A stretch of 64,000 bases of DNA from Candidatus Saccharimonadota bacterium (GTDB lineage Bacteria; Patescibacteriota; Saccharimonadia; Saccharimonadales; JAGQNJ01), in assembly GCA_036826295.1 (NCBI GenBank), contig DAISWO010000002.1, forward strand, positions 77,963 through 141,962. The letters are read 5' to 3'. Under the pieces are notes generated by a model. That model was not told the origin of the DNA. It made no database searches and worked only from the letters and a program-made list of their open reading frames with translations. This document shows, piece after piece, positions 5,111-62,598 of the stretch (the stretch's first letter is position 1; the number at the start of each line of letters is the position of its first letter). Made by a program: the position numbers and the translations under genes.

Positions 5111-5497
5111 ATGGCAAGAATTTCTGGAGTTACTATTCCAACTGATAAACAGATAGAGATTGCCTTGACTTACGTGTATGGCATCGGCCGAAAAACAAGC
5201 CACGATATCGTAGAAAAAGCGAAGATTGATCCTACTATCAGAGTTAAGGATTTAACAGACAGTGAGATCTCTAAGATTCAAGATGTAATTAACGAAAATT
5301 ATTCGGTTGAAGGTGATTTACAACGTGTTGTAACCACTAACATTAAAAGACTTAAGGATATCGGATCGTATCGAGGATTAAGACATCAACGAAGCCTACC
5401 GAGCAGGGGTCAAAGAACAAGGACTAATGCAAGAACCCGTAGAGGCAAAAAAGTTACCGTAGGTGGCACTAAAGTAAAGGCAGCTACAAAGACATAG
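5111..5497 (+). CDS. rpsM: 30S ribosomal protein S13
   Basis: [30 protein letters not shown].. Confidence 0.96.
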
Positions 5498-5504
5498 GCA
5501 ATTT

Positions 5505-5963
5505 ATGAAAGACGACAACAAAACAATCGAAACACCAGAAATTATCGACGATAACGCAGCGGAGAAAGCTGTAGCTGTTGCTCCTGCCACGAAGCGGAAA
5601 AAAGTAAAAAGAACTGTTCCTTACGGTCAGATGCATATCCTAGCTACGTTCAATAACACAATTATCACTTTTACTGATTCTAAAGGCAATGCATTGACAT
5701 ATAGTAGTGCAGGAGCATGTGGCTTTAGAGGATCGAAAAAAGGCACAGCCTATGCAGCCCAAATCGCCGCAGAAAAAGCCGCCAACGCAGCAAAGCAAAA
5801 CTTTGGTTTATCTAAAGTAGATATATTCGTAAAAGGCGTTGGACTAGGACGAGAAGCAGCAATTCGCACACTGATTAACGCAAATATTAAAGCGGAGAGT
5901 ATTGCAGACGTTACTGGCGTACCTCACGGTGGTGTTAGACCAAAGAAAGCACGGAGAGTATAG
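5505..5963 (+). CDS. rpsK: 30S ribosomal protein S11 with a roughly 30 aa N-terminal extension
   Basis: GQMHILATFNNTIITFTDSKGNALTYSSAGACGFRGSKKGTAYAAQ. Confidence 0.94.
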   Translation: MKDDNKTIETPEIIDDNAAEKAVAVAPATKRKKVKRTVPYGQMHILATFNNTIITFTDSKGNALTYSSAGACGFRGSKKGTAYAAQIAAEKAANAAKQNFGLSKVDIFVKGVGLGREAAIRTLINANIKAESIADVTGVPHGGVRPKKARRV

Positions 5964-14172: not shown

Positions 14173-14829
14173 ATGATAGAACTACTTTTAGTCGTCGGTT
14201 TTGGAATAATTGCCTACCGTAGCGCTACAATTCGTGACGAAGATTTGTCGCCGCTCCCTAGAAAGTTAAGTGATAAGCTTGGACAACTTTGGGGAATTGC
14301 CCATCAAGGGATGAAGGATAATAGTTTAATTAGAGCAGAAAAAGCTCTTTTGACTATCCTAAAGATTGACAAAAAAAATGCTGCCGCCTACAACCGTTTA
14401 GGCATCTTATACGCTAAGCAAAAAGAGTACAAAGATGCTATAGATTGCTTTGAGATTGCCTCGAGCATCGAAGTGAGTCCTTCGAGCCTGCATAACTTAG
14501 GATTAATCTACTATGAAACAGAGAATTACGAGAAGGCAGCAACTGCGTTCGAACAAGCACTAAAACTAGAGGATGACTTGGCGGCTAGGCATGTTGCATA
14601 TGCAAAAGTTCAAGAAAAACTAGGCAACAACAAGCTCATGTTTGCAGAGCTCGAGAAAGCTGTCGAGATTGAGCCGACTAAAGAATCGTTAAAATATCTA
14701 CACCAAGCTTATGAGAATAACGATATGCACGATGAAGCACGAAATATTCGCCGTAGACTAGATCGAGCCACAGTTTCAAAAACAAAACCAAAAAAACTAA
14801 CAAGACCAAAACGTAGAGTTGTTATTTAA
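14173..14829 (+). CDS. TPR-repeat protein with N-terminal TM helix
   Basis: Repeated A..YN.LG..Y....Y..A...FE.AL pattern (AAAYNRLGILYAKQKEYKDAIDCFEIA; HNLGLIYYETENYEKAATAFEQAL). Confidence 0.75.
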   Translation: MIELLLVVGFGIIAYRSATIRDEDLSPLPRKLSDKLGQLWGIAHQGMKDNSLIRAEKALLTILKIDKKNAAAYNRLGILYAKQKEYKDAIDCFEIASSIEVSPSSLHNLGLIYYETENYEKAATAFEQALKLEDDLAARHVAYAKVQEKLGNNKLMFAELEKAVEIEPTKESLKYLHQAYENNDMHDEARNIRRRLDRATVSKTKPKKLTRPKRRVVI

Positions 14830-14949
14830 CCCCTGTTCTGGTAAAATTTGACAGTACTTTTCTTTGATAATAAGAGGAAAAGAGCAGCCTGACAAAATGT
14901 ATTCCATTTTGCCAGCGCGATGAGAAAAACCTTTGGTTTGTCTCATTAG

Positions 14950-15026
14950 GCCGCCTTAGCTCAGTTGGTTAGAGCGACGGTTTTGTAAACCGTAGGTCGT
15001 CGGTTCGAATCCGACAGGCGGCTCCA
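14950..15026 (+). tRNA. tRNA-Thr (anticodon UGU), CCA encoded
   Basis: Hand-folded cloverleaf: GCCGCCT/AGGCGGC acceptor, anticodon arm ACGGT-TTTGTAA-ACCGT, T arm GTCGG-TTCGAAT-CCGAC; 77 nt. Confidence 0.93.
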
Positions 15027-15091
15027 CAGAAAGCATCATGACAGTTTACTGTTATTGTGCTTTCGAGGAAGCAACTGCAGCCCGAAGGGCT

Positions 15092-15104
15092 ACAGGCGGC
15101 TCCA
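15092..15104 (+). repeat. 13-nt direct duplicate of the tRNA-Thr 3' end (ACAGGCGGCTCCA) behind a mini-hairpin
   Basis: Identical to 15014-15026; preceded by GCAGCCC-gaa-GGGCT-a-C hairpin. Confidence 0.85.
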
Positions 15105-15173
15105 GTAATATTAAGCTTATTGCGTGAAAGCTTAATTGTGGGCTAGAGTTCATGTAGGTGTTTATGTGTTACC

Positions 15174-15225
15174 TAGCCTAACGAACCAACGAGCGGGTTT
15201 CCCGACTCGAGTGTTCGCTAGGCTA
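15174..15225. other. long imperfect hairpin in the tRNA-Thr/tRNA-Tyr spacer
   Basis: TAGCCTA-a-CGAAC-caa-CGAG..CTCG-agt-GTTCG-c-TAGGCTA read directly. Confidence 0.6.
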
Positions 15226-15302
15226 AGAGGAAGAATCGACTAGAGAGTGAAAGTAAATTATCAAACAATAATTTACTGGAAGTTGACCGTCGGTTCTGAC
15301 GA

Positions 15303-15388
15303 GCAGGGTTAGTGAAGCGGTCAAACACGGCAGACTGTAAATCTGCTGGCTTATGCCTTCGTAGGTTCGAATCCTACACCCTGCACCA
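15303..15388 (+). tRNA. tRNA-Tyr (anticodon GUA), long variable arm, CCA encoded
   Basis: GCAGGGT/ACCCTGC acceptor, GCAGA-CTGTAAA-TCTGC, variable arm TGGCTTATGCCTTC, GTAGG-TTCGAAT-CCTAC; 86 nt. Confidence 0.92.
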
Positions 15389-15431
15389 TCCTTCGTCGCT
15401 ATGTTTCTATACATAGCTATGAAGGATTTTT
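15388..15431 (+). terminator. tRNA-trailer hairpin/terminator (family copy 1)
   Basis: ATCCTTC-gtc-GCTATG..CATAGC-tat-GAAGGAT + TTTTT, starting in the CCA end. Confidence 0.7.
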
Positions 15432-15436
15432 AGTTT

Positions 15437-15488
15437 GTCGTAGGGTTCGAACCGACAGGCGAAAACAGTTGGGGGCTGTTTGAGTTAT
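15437..15488 (+). repeat. T-arm-like mini-element (tRNA-Thr 3'-half-like GTCG..GGTTCGAACCGACAGGCG + AAACAG/CTGTTT hairpin + GAGTTAT)
   Basis: Near-copy at 62061-62106, relatives at 61250-61290 and 56541-56598. Confidence 0.75.
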
Positions 15489-15533
15489 CCATATTTCTAG
15501 CGAGATACTTTAGTTCTCGAGCGGATTAATCAA

Positions 15534-15556
15534 TTCGAATCCTACACCCTGCACCA
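15534..15556 (+). repeat. 23-nt exact duplicate of the tRNA-Tyr 3' end (TTCGAATCCTACACCCTGCACCA)
   Basis: Identical to 15366-15388; followed by a weak hairpin and T-run (15565-15590). Confidence 0.9.
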
Positions 15557-15956
15557 AACTAAGAACCCGACTTGTTCAGGTTTTTTGTTTGGTTTAAGTT
15601 GAAGGTTTCAAAATTACGACGGGAGCCTTCGTAGGGGAGAACTGTCAGTAGCAGTTCGAACAGTCGGGAGCCCGGAGTATATTAATGCCCGAGCTGAGGC
15701 AGGGTCGCGGAAATTTACATATAGAAAATTGTTCGTGACCGAATCCTTTTAGGTTTCGAGCTCGCGGAACGTGACCGAATCCTACTGGTTACTGATCAAA
15801 GCCTAATTCTGTCATAGCAATTATTTCTATGCTCTAAATAGGGCTGATAAAGTTGACGAAAGTATATAATTAAACTATGTTTCAGTAGGAGGCTAATATA
15901 CTGAGCCCATAAGAAACCACTGCTTTGTAAAGTGTAAATATAACAAGGAGTTTATT

Positions 15957-16385
15957 ATGCCGAATAAACCTGGCGTTGGACTGGGAGTAATAATTGAGAA
16001 TGAGCAAGGACAAGTTTTTATCGGAAAAAGAACCGGTAGCCATGCTCCGCATTACTCAATACCGGGCGGTAAGCTAGAACTAGGAGAAACTTTCGAACAA
16101 GGGGCTATTCGAGAGATACAAGAAGAACACGGAATAACAATTGTTAAACCAAAAGTGATAGCAGTAACAAATAACTTAGAGACATATAGGGCAGAAGGAA
16201 TTCACTTTATTTCGGTTATTTTATTAGCAAAGGCGTTCGAAGGAGAACCAAGTATTTGTGAACCGGATAAATGCGAAGAGATTCTCTGGGCAGATCCAAC
16301 CAGCTTACCTCAACCACATTTTGATGCGAGCAGACTTGCAATCGAGTGCTATTTACAAGAAAAACCCTACGTTGGAATTAGATAG
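15957..16385 (+). CDS. NUDIX hydrolase
   Basis: Nudix box GGKLELGETFEQGAIREIQEEHGI. Confidence 0.88.
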   Translation: MPNKPGVGLGVIIENEQGQVFIGKRTGSHAPHYSIPGGKLELGETFEQGAIREIQEEHGITIVKPKVIAVTNNLETYRAEGIHFISVILLAKAFEGEPSICEPDKCEEILWADPTSLPQPHFDASRLAIECYLQEKPYVGIR

Positions 16386-19581: not shown

Positions 19582-19658
19582 TGGCAGGGGTGGAGGGACT
19601 TGAACCCGCGACCTTCGGTTTTGGAGACCGACGCTCTAGCCAGCTGAGCTACACCCCT
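19582..19658 (-). tRNA. tRNA-Trp (anticodon CCA), CCA end encoded; one C-U mismatch in T stem
   Basis: Reverse complement AGGGGTG TA GCTC AGCTGGCT AGAGC G TCGGT CTCCAAA ACCGA AGGTC GCGGG TTCAAGT CCCTC CACCCCT G CCA. Confidence 0.88.
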
Positions 19659-19785
19659 ATACGGCTAATTGATAATTAAAGGTTCAAGTCCGACTTGGTC
19701 ACATTCTGCGACCCCGAAACTTTCATACTCTAAGCATAGCTTATAATCTGAAAGATTTCCTTGCGAAATGCCACAGGCATTTCTC

Positions 19786-19845
19786 ACCCGCGACCTTCGG
19801 TTCTAGCGACCGACGTTTCACACCAACTGAGCTACACCCCTATAC
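19786..19845 (-). pseudogene. partial, diverged duplicate of the tRNA-Trp 5' two-thirds (acceptor, D and anticodon arms; no T arm)
   Basis: 17-nt and 18-nt blocks identical to 19604-19620 and 19645-19662; anticodon-loop equivalent reads CGCTAGA (CUA); D stem not pairable. Confidence 0.8.
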
Positions 19846-19987
19846 CTAGTAACTATTTAGATACCAGTTAATAATACAATACGTTATCTGTTATGTCACT
19901 TGAGCTTTTTATCTATTAATATCTAATGAACACAAATCAATCTTTAGCATTTAACCAAAGTCCAACTCTGTTATACAATAGATGCAC

Positions 19988-20638
19988 ATGTCAAAAATTC
20001 CATTAAAGAAACCCGTACTCATCACACTATTTGGCTTCCCAGGTTCTGGCAAAACATATTTTGCAAAAAACCTAACCAACTATATACAGGCCGTACATAT
20101 CAGTACCGATAAGCTTCGAAACGAGCTGTTTACTCGTCCAAGATTCGACAAAGAAGAAAATAGCGTAGTAAGTCATCTTGCTCAATATATGTGTGAGGAA
20201 TTTTTATCAGCTGGTGTCAGCGTAATATATGACGGCAAATGCGATAGACTTTCAAAGCGCCTAGCTTTAAGAGAAATAGCAAAAAAACATAAAGCTGTAT
20301 ATACACTAATTTGGTTTCAGATAGACAAGGACTCAGCGTTTGCGAGAATGAAAAATCGCGATAAAAGAAGAACTGAAGATAAGTACTCTCGAGATTTCAC
20401 AAAAGAAGAATTTGGCAAGTTTATAAGTAGTGTACAGAATCCAAAACCAGAAGAAGATTATCTAGTTTTAAGCGGCAAACACTCGCCTAATATGCAACGT
20501 AGCGCTCTAGTAAGACGACTGTTCGAAAGAGGAGTCATATCTGCCGATTACGTACCTTCAAACGTTACAAAGCCTGGCATGGTAAACCTTGTACCAGGAC
20601 GAGTTGACGAAAGCCGCAGAAATATTTCAATCCGCTAG
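19988..20638 (+). CDS. P-loop kinase/AAA_33-like ATPase (leaderless start at second ATG favoured)
   Basis: LITLFGFPGSGKTYFAKNL Walker A; TACAAT 19974-19979 lies 8 nt before ATG 19988. Confidence 0.6.
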   Translation: MSKIPLKKPVLITLFGFPGSGKTYFAKNLTNYIQAVHISTDKLRNELFTRPRFDKEENSVVSHLAQYMCEEFLSAGVSVIYDGKCDRLSKRLALREIAKKHKAVYTLIWFQIDKDSAFARMKNRDKRRTEDKYSRDFTKEEFGKFISSVQNPKPEEDYLVLSGKHSPNMQRSALVRRLFERGVISADYVPSNVTKPGMVNLVPGRVDESRRNISIR

Positions 20639-31163: not shown

Positions 31164-31310
31164 CACCGACGCTTTACTCTGTTAAGATTGCATAGTTAAT
31201 TACCAAAGACAGCGATGGTCGCACGCGACTTAATCATATCGCCGAGGCAAAAACATCAACTTTTTGTATCGTACGTTTTTAAAAGTCTTTGGTAACCCAA
31301 AGGCTTTTTT
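31160..31310 (+). promoter_or_regulatory. rplJ promoter and L10-leader-like attenuator
   Basis: TTGACA 31160-31165, 17 nt spacer, TAAGAT 31183-31188. Long-range helix TTACCAAAGAC 31200-31210 / GTCTTTGGTAA 31285-31295 competes with terminator 31284-31305 + T-run. Confidence 0.6.
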
Positions 31311-31356
31311 AGTCTTCGTACATTGAAATGAATAAAATAATCAAAGAAAGGAAGAT

Positions 31357-57595: not shown

Positions 57596-58096
57596 TTGGT
57601 CATAGTTTGCAGTTTTCCTGTGCATCTGGTTTTCCTAAGCAGATGTTCTATTTGTATTTACTACCACAATCCTACTGCCAGTGAACTGGCAATCGGTTGT
57701 CGCCACGCCTCGACTCGGGCAATAATTTGCGCCGGGCTTCCGGCCTTGCAAACTGCCACAGGCAGTTCTCACCTTATCAAAAAACAGAGGGAATGGGAGG
57801 TTTATTGTCCGAATGAATGCTGAGGACTAATCCGATTCCATACAATGGAATAATGAATCGGATCGCTTGCGTTCCACAAGCACGGACTAGAAACATCCCA
57901 AGACCATCTATCTTTTTGATAGGGCGGCTTTTTTGCATACTTTGGTAGCTGCAGACAAAAGTATGAAAATATATTTCAAAGCTTTGTTTTTTGTTTCGCA
58001 GGGCACCTTTGCCATTCCGCTAGACAGCAGATTCTTACTGACTGAGAAAGTATGTGAAATTCGCGAACCGTAGGATCACAAGAAAAATGTTTTGTA
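57596..58096 (-). repeat. structured repeat SR-F (composite: full core plus a second partial copy of the P1-side end)
   Basis: Reverse complement has CTTGTGGAACGCAAGCG + ATCCGATTC/GAATCGGAT + TAGTCCTCAGC (57819-57880). P1 at 57946-57975. 58040-58096 repeats SR-B 56780-56836. Confidence 0.8.
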
Positions 58097-61122: not shown

Positions 61123-61196
61123 TTCGGGATCGTCTAATGGTAGGACACTGGTTTTTGGTACCAGCAATCTAGGTTCAAATCCTAGTCCCGAAGCCA
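61123..61196 (+). tRNA. tRNA-Gln (anticodon UUG), U1-A72, CCA encoded
   Basis: TTCGGGA/TCCCGAA acceptor, CTGGT-TTTTGGT-ACCAG, CTAGG-TTCAAAT-CCTAG; 74 nt. Confidence 0.9.
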
Positions 61197-61241
61197 TCCT
61201 TCGTCACTATGCTTTAAACGCATAGTTATGAAGGATTTTTT
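61196..61241 (+). terminator. tRNA-trailer hairpin/terminator (family copy 2)
   Basis: ATCCTTC-gtca-CTATGC..GCATAG-ttat-GAAGGAT + TTTTTT. Confidence 0.7.
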
Positions 61242-61249
61242 CGTTATAT

Positions 61250-61290
61250 GGAGTTGAACCTTGGTCGTAAACAGCCTAGTGGCTGTTTAC
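61250..61290 (+). repeat. T-arm-like mini-element (GGAGTTGAACC + GTAAACAG/CTGTTTAC hairpin)
   Basis: Same architecture as 15443-15488 and 62061-62106. Confidence 0.65.
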
Positions 61291-61354
61291 GTTTTACTCT
61301 CTTGTCTGTATGCGCGTTGGCTACGCCAACTAGTCGCTAACAGATGATGAACAG

Positions 61355-61445
61355 TCCTAGTCTAGGGAGCCATCCTTCGTCGCAAACCCATTGATGGGTT
61401 AGCTATGAAGGATTGTTGCGTTCTATGGGTTTGAACCTTGATAGT
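61355..61445 (+). repeat. second trailer module: degenerate tRNA-Gln 3' end + ATCCTTC..GAAGGAT hairpin (inner stem swapped) + TATGGGTTTGAACC
   Basis: GTCCTAGTCTAGGGAGCCATCCTTCGTCGC compared with the tRNA end ATCCTAGTCCCGAAGCCATCCTTCGTCAC. Confidence 0.7.
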
Positions 61446-61462
61446 GCTAGTCACATAAGCTT

Positions 61463-61477: not shown

Positions 61478-62023
61478 ATGTCAGAGAATCCAAAAGTACT
61501 TCTTATAACCGGTCCTTCTGGAAGTGGTAAAAGCACTTTGGCGCAAAGCGTAGCTGAAAAACTTGACTGGGCATACGTGTGCGAGGACGACTTTTGGGTT
61601 AAAACAGGTTGGGGTGTAGATATTAGAACAGCTGAACAAGAACGGGTAATTCAAACCCAGGTCAATAGCAAAGTAACTGATGAATTAAATAAAGATAAGG
61701 GTGTTGTGCTTGAGTTTATACTATACAAAAAAGCACCAAACACCCTCACAGCCTATCAAGAAAGTCTTACCAATAGCGGTATAGAGTTTGACACAATCGC
61801 ACTAAAACCTCCCGTTGGCGAAATCCTTAATAGAATTGCCAACAGAGGGAGAGCAGCAGATCTAGACAACCCAAAGCGACGACTACAAGAAGTAGAGAGC
61901 CAGCTACAAGTTATTGAGCCAGAACTGATTCATCCCGGTTTAATGATAGATCCTACCGGAATGTCTATAGATTTGCTTCGCGACATGTGTATAGAGCGAA
62001 TTTTTCACTCCCCTCATATTTAA
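61478..62023 (+). CDS. P-loop NTPase/kinase
   Basis: LITGPSGSGKSTLA Walker A. Confidence 0.6.
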   Translation: MSENPKVLLITGPSGSGKSTLAQSVAEKLDWAYVCEDDFWVKTGWGVDIRTAEQERVIQTQVNSKVTDELNKDKGVVLEFILYKKAPNTLTAYQESLTNSGIEFDTIALKPPVGEILNRIANRGRAADLDNPKRRLQEVESQLQVIEPELIHPGLMIDPTGMSIDLLRDMCIERIFHSPHI

Positions 62024-62060
62024 ACGTATTTAGCTCTACTAATGGCCCAGCTCGCTATAT

Positions 62061-62106
62061 GGATTTGAACAGTCAGGCGAAAACAGTCAGGGACTGTTTG
62101 AGTTAT
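62061..62106 (+). repeat. T-arm-like mini-element (GGATTTGAAC-AGTC-AGGCGAAAACAG..CTGTTTGAGTTAT)
   Basis: Close copy of 15443-15488; fills the gap before the deaminase gene. Confidence 0.75.
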
Positions 62107-62115
62107 ACTTATATC

Positions 62116-62598
62116 ATGAATGACGAAGACTTTATGAAACTTGCAATCGAGACCGCACAAAAGGCAGAGGCCGATGGTGGTGCAGCAATTGGTGCAATAA
62201 TGGTAAAAGACGGCAAGATTATAGCTAAAGGCTTAAGCAACCCTTGGGGCAAACGCGATCCATCCAATCATGGCGAGATTGACTGTATCCGTCACTGCGC
62301 CAAAGACAATGACCTCATGGATATGCAGGGCTGTACGATGTACGGCACGCTTGAACCGTGTTCTATGTGTGTTGGTGCTGCGCTCTGGGCTGGTGTGGAC
62401 CGTATAGTATTTGGCGCCTACGCTATAGATGTGGCCGGCAACGAGTACGAATACGATAATTACAGCGCGGAAGCATTGGCTAAGACATCTAGAAAAGCTG
62501 CCGACCCATCCCGAGGTAAAATCGAGATTATCGGCGGTGTACTCCGCGAAGAGTGCAAAGCACTACTAAATAATTACAAAGGCTGGCAAAAAACATGA
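62116..62598 (+). CDS. CMP/dCMP-type zinc deaminase (TadA/RibD-deaminase/guanine-deaminase-like); start moved to ATG 62116
   Basis: HGEIDCIRH and PCSMCVGA zinc motifs; the track ORF N-terminus (61987-62115) covers a repeat. Confidence 0.8.
   Translation: MNDEDFMKLAIETAQKAEADGGAAIGAIMVKDGKIIAKGLSNPWGKRDPSNHGEIDCIRHCAKDNDLMDMQGCTMYGTLEPCSMCVGAALWAGVDRIVFGAYAIDVAGNEYEYDNYSAEALAKTSRKAADPSRGKIEIIGGVLREECKALLNNYKGWQKT

Follow-up and report, generated by a model that had tools for sequence, protein, structure and literature searches.

Why is a tRNA gene followed closely by an exact copy of its own 3′ end? The question is raised by the tRNA-Thr(UGU)/tRNA-Tyr(GUA) locus of a Candidatus Saccharimonadota bacterium, which lies in a 64,000-nt stretch of contig DAISWO010000002.1 that we analysed at its full length (hereafter, the window). 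A preliminary description of this locus listed the duplicated tRNA ends together with several tRNA-like scraps, and attributed them either to repeated cycles of integrase-driven integration and deletion or to miniature non-autonomous elements. Here, we show that the copies belong to conserved, folded and non-coding units that recur beside many tRNAs. On balance, the duplicated ends are probably the tRNA-derived termini of structured non-coding units that resemble RtT, the repeats found behind the tRNA-Tyr genes of Escherichia coli.

Exact copies of tRNA 3′ ends and the units that carry them

Both repeats are exact, and both stop where the tRNA stops. The last 13 nt of tRNA-Thr(UGU), ACAGGCGGCTCCA, occur in the window only at 15014-15026 and 15092-15104, 78 nt apart, and the last 23 nt of tRNA-Tyr, TTCGAATCCTACACCCTGCACCA, only at 15366-15388 and 15534-15556, 168 nt apart; the CCA is the exact end of identity in each case. 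Two matches of either sequence were obtained in 0/100 shuffles each, so that neither repeat is expected by chance. The scraps are likewise present (GCCTTCGTAGG at 15625-15635, GTTCGAAC at 15654, and CGTGACCGAATCCT at 15734 and 15770), which confirms the inventory of the preliminary description, and both ARAGORN and Rfam call the intact tRNA-Thr(UGU) and tRNA-Tyr(GUA) genes (Table 1). The intervals contain no plausible coding open reading frame (ORF), the sole ORF of at least 40 aa (15223-15414, minus strand) overlapping tRNA-Tyr. They are non-coding, as had been described; however, they are structured and conserved, and not mere spacer.

The class A unit begins directly after the tRNA-Thr CCA, with no terminator in between. 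Its layout is CAG, a hairpin (15029-15064), CGAGGAAGC, a second hairpin, and an A followed by the acceptor 3′ strand and NCCA, and it ends in ACAGGCGGCTCCA, such that the 13-nt copy forms the 3′ strand of the terminal helix. An RNAalifold analysis of six class A copies yields 20 pairs, 6 of which have compensatory changes, and the 5′ strand covaries with the tRNA-derived end between Thr(UGU) and Thr(GGU) copies. A model of class A (R3), whose training set excluded the relative L125, has matches behind tRNA-Thr only, in the window, L110, L018, L078 (three copies) and L125.

Behind tRNA-Tyr, the 23-nt copy terminates a class D unit. Here, GTAGGGTTCGAA (15440-15451) pairs with TTCGAATCCTAC (15534-15545), a part of the copy, to form a closing helix that encloses further hairpins, and the 3′ tail, ACCCTGCACCA, is unpaired in the predicted fold. 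The minimum free energy (MFE) of this fold has a z-score of -5.19, and the closing helix is also recovered by RNAalifold from five class D units. The segment at 15437-15461, previously read as a diverged 3′ half of tRNA-Thr, is instead a conserved piece of this tRNA-Tyr-linked unit: its motif, GGRTTCGAAYCGAYAGGCG, is also found in L110, L043 and L024, the tRNA-Thr sequence of L043 is different, and the region pairs, as the 5′ strand of a helix of 10-12 bp, with the T-loop/T-stem portion of the 23-nt copy. The unit further contains, at 15463-15481, the equivalent of P1, the first hairpin of the module described below. Its body is related by nhmmer to sequences at 61198-61294 and 62053-62117 of the window.

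Terminator-like hairpins stand on both sides of the class D body (Table 1). The string TCCTTCGTC at the start of the first one occurs in the window only at 15389, 61197 and 61373; at the latter two positions, behind tRNA-Gln, the hairpin sequence recurs. The stem of the second one was matched on the opposite strand in a terminator scan, and equivalent hairpins stand after the copies in many other loci.

The scraps at 15.6-15.8 kb are real, but they are not loose pieces. They form a single, decayed copy of a three-hairpin module, in the order GCCTTCGTAGG (15625-15635), module (15636-15740), GAATCCT, a partial repeat of hairpin P3, GAATCCTAC (15777-15785) and a decayed acceptor. GCCTTCGTAGG consists of the tRNA-Tyr variable arm and the 5′ strand of its T-stem, GAATCCT is the 3′ half of the T-loop with the T-stem, and in CGTGACCGAATCCT the T-loop of tRNA-Tyr is joined to the 3′ strand of the last module hairpin. 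A decayed module between pieces of tRNA-Tyr therefore accounts for all of the scraps in this region.

Recurrence across Saccharibacteria

A scan with the 23-mer in one genome per species retrieved 119 stretches, and the titles of nearly all of them name Candidatus Saccharibacteria or Saccharimonadales. Most of them contain a cluster of tRNA-Thr(UGU), tRNA-Tyr and tRNA-Thr(GGU) with varying order and strand. When a copy is defined as the tRNA's own last 16 nt with at most two mismatches, within 450 nt downstream, a 3′-end copy is found behind 27 of 104 tRNA-Tyr genes (26%), 13 of 90 tRNA-Thr(UGU) genes (14%) and 1 of 63 tRNA-Thr(GGU) genes. The copies track the local tRNA variant (GGCGGC, GGTGGC, AAGTGGC and TGTCGGC; ACAGGCGGCTCCA, ACAGGTGGCTCCA, ACAAGTGGCTCCA and CTCTGTCGGCTCCA), and the copies of a further class, B, comprise exactly 18 nt, positions 59-76. 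Tandem arrays also occur, with four copies in L044, three in L109 and two or three units of 176 nt in L120.

Duplicates at conserved spacing in relatives, which the preliminary description had named as a finding that would speak against integration, were largely found. The lengths of the tRNA-Tyr units have two modes (~100-113 nt and 147-179 nt), and L110, the closest relative in the set at ~80% identity, carries orthologous units after tRNA-Thr and tRNA-Tyr alike. Between the window and L110, the unit bodies are ~85% identical and their hairpins are kept through compensatory changes, while the adjoining spacer is unalignable.

A three-hairpin module beside many tRNAs

We now turn to the ~90-nt module itself, which is present in canonical form at three Saccharibacteria loci in the species genomes and at 50 loci in a metagenome scan. 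The scan pattern was the module's first hairpin with two degenerate positions, and these two covary perfectly. Thirty distinct copies fold into three consecutive hairpins with 94.8% of cells paired, compared to 27-45% when the partners are slid, and with double changes at 21 of 35 module pairs, compared to 6-9 when slid; the observed pairing or covariation score was reached by 0/500 shuffles. Because hairpin P1 is fixed by the search pattern, the independent evidence of covariation is that of the second and third hairpins, and within P1 one pair outside the fixed pattern covaries 15:15. The pair 83-93 is a G·U in 28 of the 30 copies and, together with other G·U pairs, it identifies the folded strand as the tRNA sense strand. 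The conservation of G·U pairs on that strand points to RNA. The module has compensatory pairs beyond those of the controls and a strand-specific fold, the two features by which a functional structured RNA is recognized.

At about 40 of the 50 loci, the module is flanked by part of a nearby tRNA and is located inside a loop of this partial copy. Most junctions lie in the T-loop, where the match to the tRNA ends at 53-55 and resumes at 56-57, and the others lie in the anticodon loop (37-38/39-41), at position 26 or in the D-loop. Wherever the adjacent tRNA is readable, an intact tRNA for the same amino acid stands beside the module, mostly with identical sequence; about 13 amino-acid identities are represented, including Leu, Arg, Ser, Gln, Lys, Gly, Ala, Glu, Pro, His and Ile. 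Two layouts occur, with the intact tRNA either upstream (the 3′ copy is kept) or downstream (the 5′ copy is kept), and identity with the intact tRNA stops at its mature ends (+1 or CCA) at 9 of 10 informative loci in one layout and 11 of 15 in the other. Some loci (L150, L138, L130 and L120) have duplicated the adjacent terminator or leader as well. The stretch that separates the first terminator from the module contains a degenerate copy of the tRNA 3′ end in antisense orientation, which is led by TGG and pairs with the sense copy. The tRNA repeats are 12-66 nt long, subtypes of the second hairpin (P2) are common to different tRNAs, with tRNA-Gln alone carrying four, and 76 of the 77 tRNA genes in module loci encode CCA.

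ORF clustering within 3.5 kb of the 50 module copies yielded no recurrent integrase or transposase family, only housekeeping families. Elements with a matching attachment (att) sequence, whose existence the integration reading had presupposed, did not emerge: viral contigs contained neither the 23-mer nor the module motif (0 hits each), the module had no blastn match among phage and plasmid records, and a phage search with the whole locus returned tRNA matches only. A search of Rfam at gathering or permissive E-values, covering the window, 16 related loci and one metagenome locus, found tRNAs and chance hits only, and a literature search by sequence and topic found no description of these elements.

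Several known RNA types were considered and set aside. A hammerhead or other small ribozyme, suggested by a CUGAUGAG-like string in L023, misfits the core and has no Rfam hit, and there was no support for a transfer-messenger RNA, a Y-RNA-like RNA or a T-box leader.

Comparison with the RtT repeats of E. coli

To our knowledge, the RtT (tyrT) repeats have been known for decades without an assigned function or relatives outside enterobacteria. The mode of action of rtT has been described as unknown (bioRxiv 10.1101/2024.07.17.603846). We checked the E. coli tyrT repeats on NC_000913.3, where three 178-bp repeats follow tyrV and a fourth RtT copy occupies the tyrT-tyrV spacer. Each unit ends in AATCCTTCCCCCACCACCA, the last 19 nt of tRNA-Tyr from the T-loop (AATCC...) through CCA, and a closing helix pairs GGGGAAGG with CCTTCCCC onto this copy, as the Rfam consensus pairs GgGaaGG with CCuuCcC. 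The Rfam RtT model (RF00391) scores 133-137 bits on each of the E. coli copies, and the annotated 3′ end of rttR is the CCA of the first repeat.

The architecture of the window's units is the same. In both systems, the unit lies directly behind tRNA-Tyr on the sense strand (15389-15556 in the window; confirmed for E. coli), the tRNA 3′ end is copied exactly down to the CCA (23 nt in the window, 19 nt in E. coli) and an upstream strand pairs with this copy in a closing helix. The T-stem strand is followed by (A/G)TGAGAA, the E. coli versions being ATGAGAAGC... and GTGAGAACC..., and E. coli and the Saccharibacteria class B units also have an internal ...AAGGTTCG piece in common. RtT has a period of 178 bp; in the window, there is one exact copy, at 168 nt, and the unit after it is of another kind and decayed, and arrays occur at tRNA-Gln (61197-61450) and in L120 (176 nt), L044 and L109. 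There are also differences. The interior consists here of three consecutive hairpins, whereas that of RtT is a junction. The units here accompany Thr, Tyr, Gln and Trp tRNAs in the window and ~13 identities in metagenomes, and they occupy the D, anticodon and T loops of partial copies, or stand 5′ of a tRNA together with a 5′ copy.

The RtT copy in the E. coli tyrT-tyrV spacer (L176 1564-1695, minus strand) is complete (132.9 bits) and reads GGGGAAGG followed by GTGAGAACC...; it shares a GTGAGAAC start with the metagenomic three-hairpin module.

A model for the units and the evidence that weighs against it

From this anatomy, we infer how the units may work and spread. Each unit consists of a strand-specific folded module that is set within a partial copy of the tRNA next to it; the 12-23 nt 3′ copy serves as the 3′ strand of a predicted closing helix, pairs with the antisense-like segment and leaves its ...NCCA tail single-stranded. 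The units would be transcribed with the tRNA operon; class A abuts the CCA without a terminator, and in the other classes transcription would have to continue past a hairpin. The tRNA 3′-processing machinery may then free them as small stable RNAs, whose tRNA-like end would both set and protect the 3′ terminus. Such processing would parallel the annotated E. coli rttR. The units would spread as non-autonomous repeats, through tandem multiplication and through recombination between tRNA loci in the tRNA sequence that they share. One crossover that joins a tRNA gene to a tRNA-like segment bearing a unit could produce either layout, namely tRNA, unit and 3′ copy, or 5′ copy, unit and tRNA.

Several observations count against this explanation. 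The Rfam RtT model (gathering threshold 45 bits) misses the window at gathering, its 14800-16000 stretch at E up to 10, and the 16 related loci, so that kinship rests on architecture and a short motif. The reciprocal models are weak on E. coli (8-11 bits), R1, a model of the module, likewise; the best hit of R2, which was built on Saccharibacteria class B cores and has only 9 base pairs, is the tyrT-tyrV RtT copy at 9.8 bits and an E-value of 0.23, which is not significant. Sequence homology with RtT is not demonstrable, and the units fall outside the Rfam RtT family. Terminator-like hairpins between the tRNA and most units disfavour efficient co-transcription, and a partial copy with one half missing is no substrate for tRNA-type processing. 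The tRNA-like end is not always kept, since the tRNA-Tyr copy of L110 (CATACACCGG) has lost its acceptor/CCA part. In L128 (compared to L142), L140 and L141, the partial copy and the intact tRNA beside it disagree in the T-stem or acceptor, where either the unit has moved between loci or the tRNA has been replaced. A clean empty/filled pair was not found for the units; the same-species contigs, obtained by flanking-protein look-ups, all stop within tRNA-Thr or tRNA-Tyr and show polymorphism at the tRNA-Thr 5′ flank only. The patchy distribution, the decayed copies and the copies that differ from the adjacent tRNA argue, in addition, against an essential role.

Alternative explanations

The duplicated ends could instead be scars, left where an integrase-bearing phage or island entered a tRNA 3′ end, duplicated its att core and was then almost wholly deleted. 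A direct repeat of the tRNA 3′ portion is the classical att signature, many tyrosine integrases join in the tRNA T-loop or anticodon loop, where junctions of the units also lie, and genuine islands flanked by tRNA fragments exist in the relatives L125 and L120. The integration-scar reading is in this respect partly supported. For the intervals studied here, however, repeated integrase-driven integration and deletion is unsupported and we regard it as quite improbable: the intervals contain no integrase or remnant of one, no recombinase recurs near the 50 module copies, and neither the 23-mer (viral contigs) nor the module (viral contigs, phages and plasmids) has a match. The lengths, sequences and covarying hairpins of the intervals are conserved across species, unlike random deletion remnants, and the same module is found at D-loop and position-26 junctions and with duplicated 5′ portions of tRNAs. 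The miniature non-autonomous elements that the preliminary description had offered as its other option fit much better, as module families adjoin many tRNAs, in most cases together with a fragment of the matching tRNA, form tandem arrays, are patchily distributed and have several copies in the window. Less probable still is the neutral decay of tandem tRNA duplications from unequal crossing-over, with the exact ends as chance survivors or products of gene conversion. Whole-unit identity in tandem arrays (the 176-nt units of L120; duplicated terminators in L051 and L150) and pieces of variable arm or T-arm inside units (L081, L105 and the window at 15625-15635) would agree with it, but 23/23 identity abuts zero similarity, the boundary is equally sharp in the ~80%-identical relative, and the non-tRNA interior is conserved, covaries and is the same beside ~13 tRNA identities. 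RecA-dependent conversion usually needs longer tracts of identity than the 13-23 nt present here.

The strongest alternatives to RtT-like units are RNA-mediated spread and a cis-regulatory role. An intron- or SINE-like module (SINE, short interspersed nuclear element) could have acquired its tRNA copies through reverse transcription with template switching, or through reverse splicing, with the complementary DNA then recombined into the genome. The copies are bounded by mature tRNA ends at most informative loci, class B copies span exactly positions 59-76, and the junctions lie at or near the positions 17-20, 26, 37 and 54-58, whose common modifications often block reverse transcriptase. The TGG-led segment that opens the units resembles a primer-binding site in its complementarity to the tRNA 3′ end, and the sharing of P2 subtypes between tRNAs, with four at tRNA-Gln, also agrees with such spread. 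No reverse transcriptase turned up, although none was searched for, and the CCA of the copies cannot reveal a post-transcriptional origin when nearly all tRNA genes of these loci encode it. The duplicated terminators and leaders of L150, L138, L130 and L120 indicate a DNA-level duplication there, and selection on tRNA-like parts could equally give sharp boundaries. We consider this route unlikely. We are equally doubtful of its wider form, in which the module is a widespread, uncatalogued family that colonised tRNA-derived loops beside most kinds of tRNA gene and spread via an RNA intermediate, as a SINE or mobile intron would, with E. coli RtT as a relic. A cis-regulatory or processing device, in which the antisense strand pairs with either the cis copy or the 3′ end of the real (pre-)tRNA, senses the status of the tRNA and controls read-through or maturation, has a similarly low probability. 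It would explain the order of terminator, antisense strand, module, sense copy and terminator, as well as the conserved position and spacing, and Rfam classes RtT as cis-regulatory. In contrast, the units are patchy (about one quarter of tRNA-Tyr genes; most species lack them and some are decayed), tandem arrays and an orphan (57688-57773) occur, the 5′-copy layout is entirely without a sense 3′ copy, and the downstream genes are unrelated housekeeping genes.

The islands of L125 and L120 are separate events layered over the units. In L125 (4154-5720 of the re-oriented copy; reverse strand), a 1.4-kb insert, with ~1.5 kb from tRNA-Thr(GGU) to the displaced 3′ copy, lies between 47-nt direct repeats of tRNA-Thr(GGU), which extend from its anticodon loop through the CCA, as is classical for an island, and a class A unit follows directly; the insert has two small ORFs (112 and 134 aa), neither of integrase size. 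In L120 (1270-4598 of the re-oriented copy; reverse strand), ~3.3 kb follow tRNA-Trp where the 92%-identical L124 has only an 85-nt terminator (5407-5491). This extra DNA contains an ORF that is possibly transglutaminase-like, as judged by eye, a unit with a copy of the tRNA-Trp 3′ end, and a large Pro/Thr-rich ORF.

Other known systems resemble the RtT-like units in part. Like att repeats, the units show direct repeats of a tRNA 3′ portion located 3′ of an intact tRNA, junctions in the T-loop or anticodon loop and a patchy distribution; unlike them, they have no detected integrase or attP element, intervals of 78-170 nt that are conserved in sequence and structure, duplications of 5′ portions, D-loop and position-26 junctions, and tandem arrays of diverged, equal-size units. 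Miniature inverted-repeat transposable elements (MITEs) and REPINs, the hairpin-forming doublets of repetitive extragenic palindromes, are similarly short, non-coding, multi-copy, structured, patchy and polymorphic between strains, and have inverted ends, for which the antisense and sense copies of the tRNA 3′ end stand here. In contrast to these elements, the ends here match the local tRNA, there is no fixed terminal repeat and no target duplication of fixed length, no candidate transposase is known, and the conserved G·U pairs point to a strand-specific RNA rather than a DNA site. Archaeal bulge-helix-bulge introns occupy non-canonical tRNA positions. Group I introns occur in the tRNA genes of Patescibacteria, which are rich in introns (PMC13011429). 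The insertion of the module into D, anticodon and T loops is intron-like, but it measures ~90 nt, matches no group I or other Rfam model and sits in truncated host copies from which a 5′ or 3′ part is missing. The interrupted copies always stand beside an intact tRNA, and are therefore not split functional genes.

The units are RtT-type, tRNA-linked repeats with a precedent, here extended to many tRNAs and to a distant phylum, and comprising several uncatalogued RNA families. Their architecture, in the ultra-small and genome-reduced Saccharibacteria, turns an E. coli curiosity into a testable comparative problem. They yield several candidate RNA families that Rfam lacks, they appear to break metagenome assemblies at tRNA genes, and tools for finding islands may misread them as att scars. 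If the units are indeed mobile, or give rise to stable RNAs capped by tRNA ends, they would add a new layer to the biology of tRNA loci in minimal genomes.

Other units and features of the window

About eight units are present in the window, and all but one of its five tRNAs have units nearby (Thr, Tyr, Gln and Trp; Table 1).

Table 1. Coordinates of tRNA genes, units and associated hairpins in the window
Feature	Position	Strand	Evidence
P1-like hairpin GATGAGAAAAACC-TTT-GGTTTGTCTCATTAG, touching the tRNA-Thr 5′ end	14919-14949	+	Weak R1 match, 15.1 bits, E 0.05
tRNA-Thr(UGU), intact, CCA in gene	14950-15026	+	ARAGORN; Rfam tRNA 76.1 bits
Class A unit, directly after tRNA-Thr CCA	15027-15104	+	Repeat, RNAalifold, model R3, L110 orthology
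Hairpin ATTAAGCTT-ATTGCGTGA-AAGCTTAAT, 3′ of the Thr copy	15110-15137	+	Flank comparison, MFE fold
tRNA-Tyr structured leader: long hairpin 15174-15225, then ...GAAGTTGACCGTCGGTTCTGACGA	15166-15302	+	Inverted repeat, alignments
tRNA-Tyr(GUA), intact, CCA in gene	15303-15388	+	ARAGORN, Rfam
Terminator-like hairpin TCCTTCGTCGCTATG...CATAGCTATGAAGGA and T run, from the first base past CCA	15389-15431	+	Inverted repeat, fold
Class D unit body	15432-15556	+	MFE fold, RNAalifold, nhmmer
Second terminator-like hairpin (AACTAAGAACCCGACTTGTTCAGGTTTTTTGTTTGG), directly past the copy's CCA	15557-15597	+	Fold
Decayed third unit	15598-15790	+	R1 18.7 bits, E 0.006 (15636-15740); nhmmer to 57703-57775, E 1.7e-8
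Mirror layout 5′ of tRNA-Trp (19582-19658, -)	19697-19841	-	Sequence
Orphan canonical module, no tRNA called nearby	57688-57773	-	R1 40.5 bits, E 1.7e-8
Two tandem class D units behind tRNA-Gln (61123-61196)	61197-61450	+	Sequence, nhmmer
Partial class D body (TATGGATTTGAACAGTCAGGCGAAAACAG...CTGTTTGAGTTATAC), past kinase-like ORF	62053-62117	+	nhmmer E 4.8e-7 vs tRNA-Tyr unit

The mirror layout at tRNA-Trp consists of a decayed, 56-nt 5′ copy of the tRNA (19841-19786), reaching up to the T-stem, which is fused to a canonical module (19788-19697); the intact tRNA-Trp lies 38 nt beyond the module. Over the 17 nt that adjoin the module, the copy is identical to tRNA-Trp, the last shared position being 55. 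The R1 score of 83.6 bits at this module is high by construction, because the search pattern was taken from this copy, which is also part of alignment A2. The orphan module is outside the A2 alignment, yet its first hairpin helped to shape the search pattern. At tRNA-Gln, the first unit (61197-61373) has the opening hairpin TCCTTCGTC...ATGAAGGA and ends in TCCTAGTCTAGGGAGCCA, a degenerate tRNA-Gln 3′ end, and the second unit is truncated ahead of an ORF at 61478.

The 5′ flank of tRNA-Thr differs between strains, which indicates that the locus is undergoing rearrangement on a recent timescale. In strain L006 (a Logan contig, ~98% identical), this flank (795-935) is wholly unlike the window at 14867-14949, and is instead homologous to the structured leader of the window's tRNA-Tyr (..GGCTAAGAGGAAGAA.CGACTAGAGA...GTCGACCGTCGGTTCTGAC). 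A homologue of the leader also sits 5′ of tRNA-Thr in L110. The P1-like hairpin at the tRNA-Thr 5′ flank is present in the window, L002 and L005, and absent from L006; it is a possible remnant of a module.

The contigs of L029, L056, L069, L084, L096, L097, L117 and L118 all start 30-32 nt 5′ of the tRNA-Tyr 23-mer. This shared break point inside tRNA-Tyr is consistent with a repeat-induced break of the assembly graph at the units.

A motif, GTCGACCGTCGGTTCTGACGA, or its tail, TCTGACGA or TTCGACGA, stands directly 5′ of +1 in different genomes, at tRNA genes or at 5′ partial copies. Sites of this type are found in the window (15283-15302), L110 (~5630-5650), L134 and L136, and the motif may be a leader or processing signal. 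The hairpin 3′ of the Thr copy (15110-15137) is also found after the CCA of the Thr copy in L110, L078 and L043, where its stem varies and its loop is alike (..UGCGAGA / UUGCGUGAA).

An AAA_33 kinase-like ORF (61478-62023) lies between the truncated and the partial class D units, with similar TATGGRTTTGAAC... stretches at 61425 and 62060, as if a gene had entered a unit or become trapped between two of them. A second AAA_33 ORF (19982-20638) adjoins the tRNA-Trp unit. The two ORFs are mutually unrelated, and their placement by unit-bearing tRNAs therefore looks coincidental. The genes neighbouring the tRNA-Thr/tRNA-Tyr locus encode TPR, NUDIX and similar proteins, and an ordinary ribosomal protein L10 leader (Rfam RF00557, 63.3 bits) is located at 31185-31320, 5′ of rplJ/rplL.

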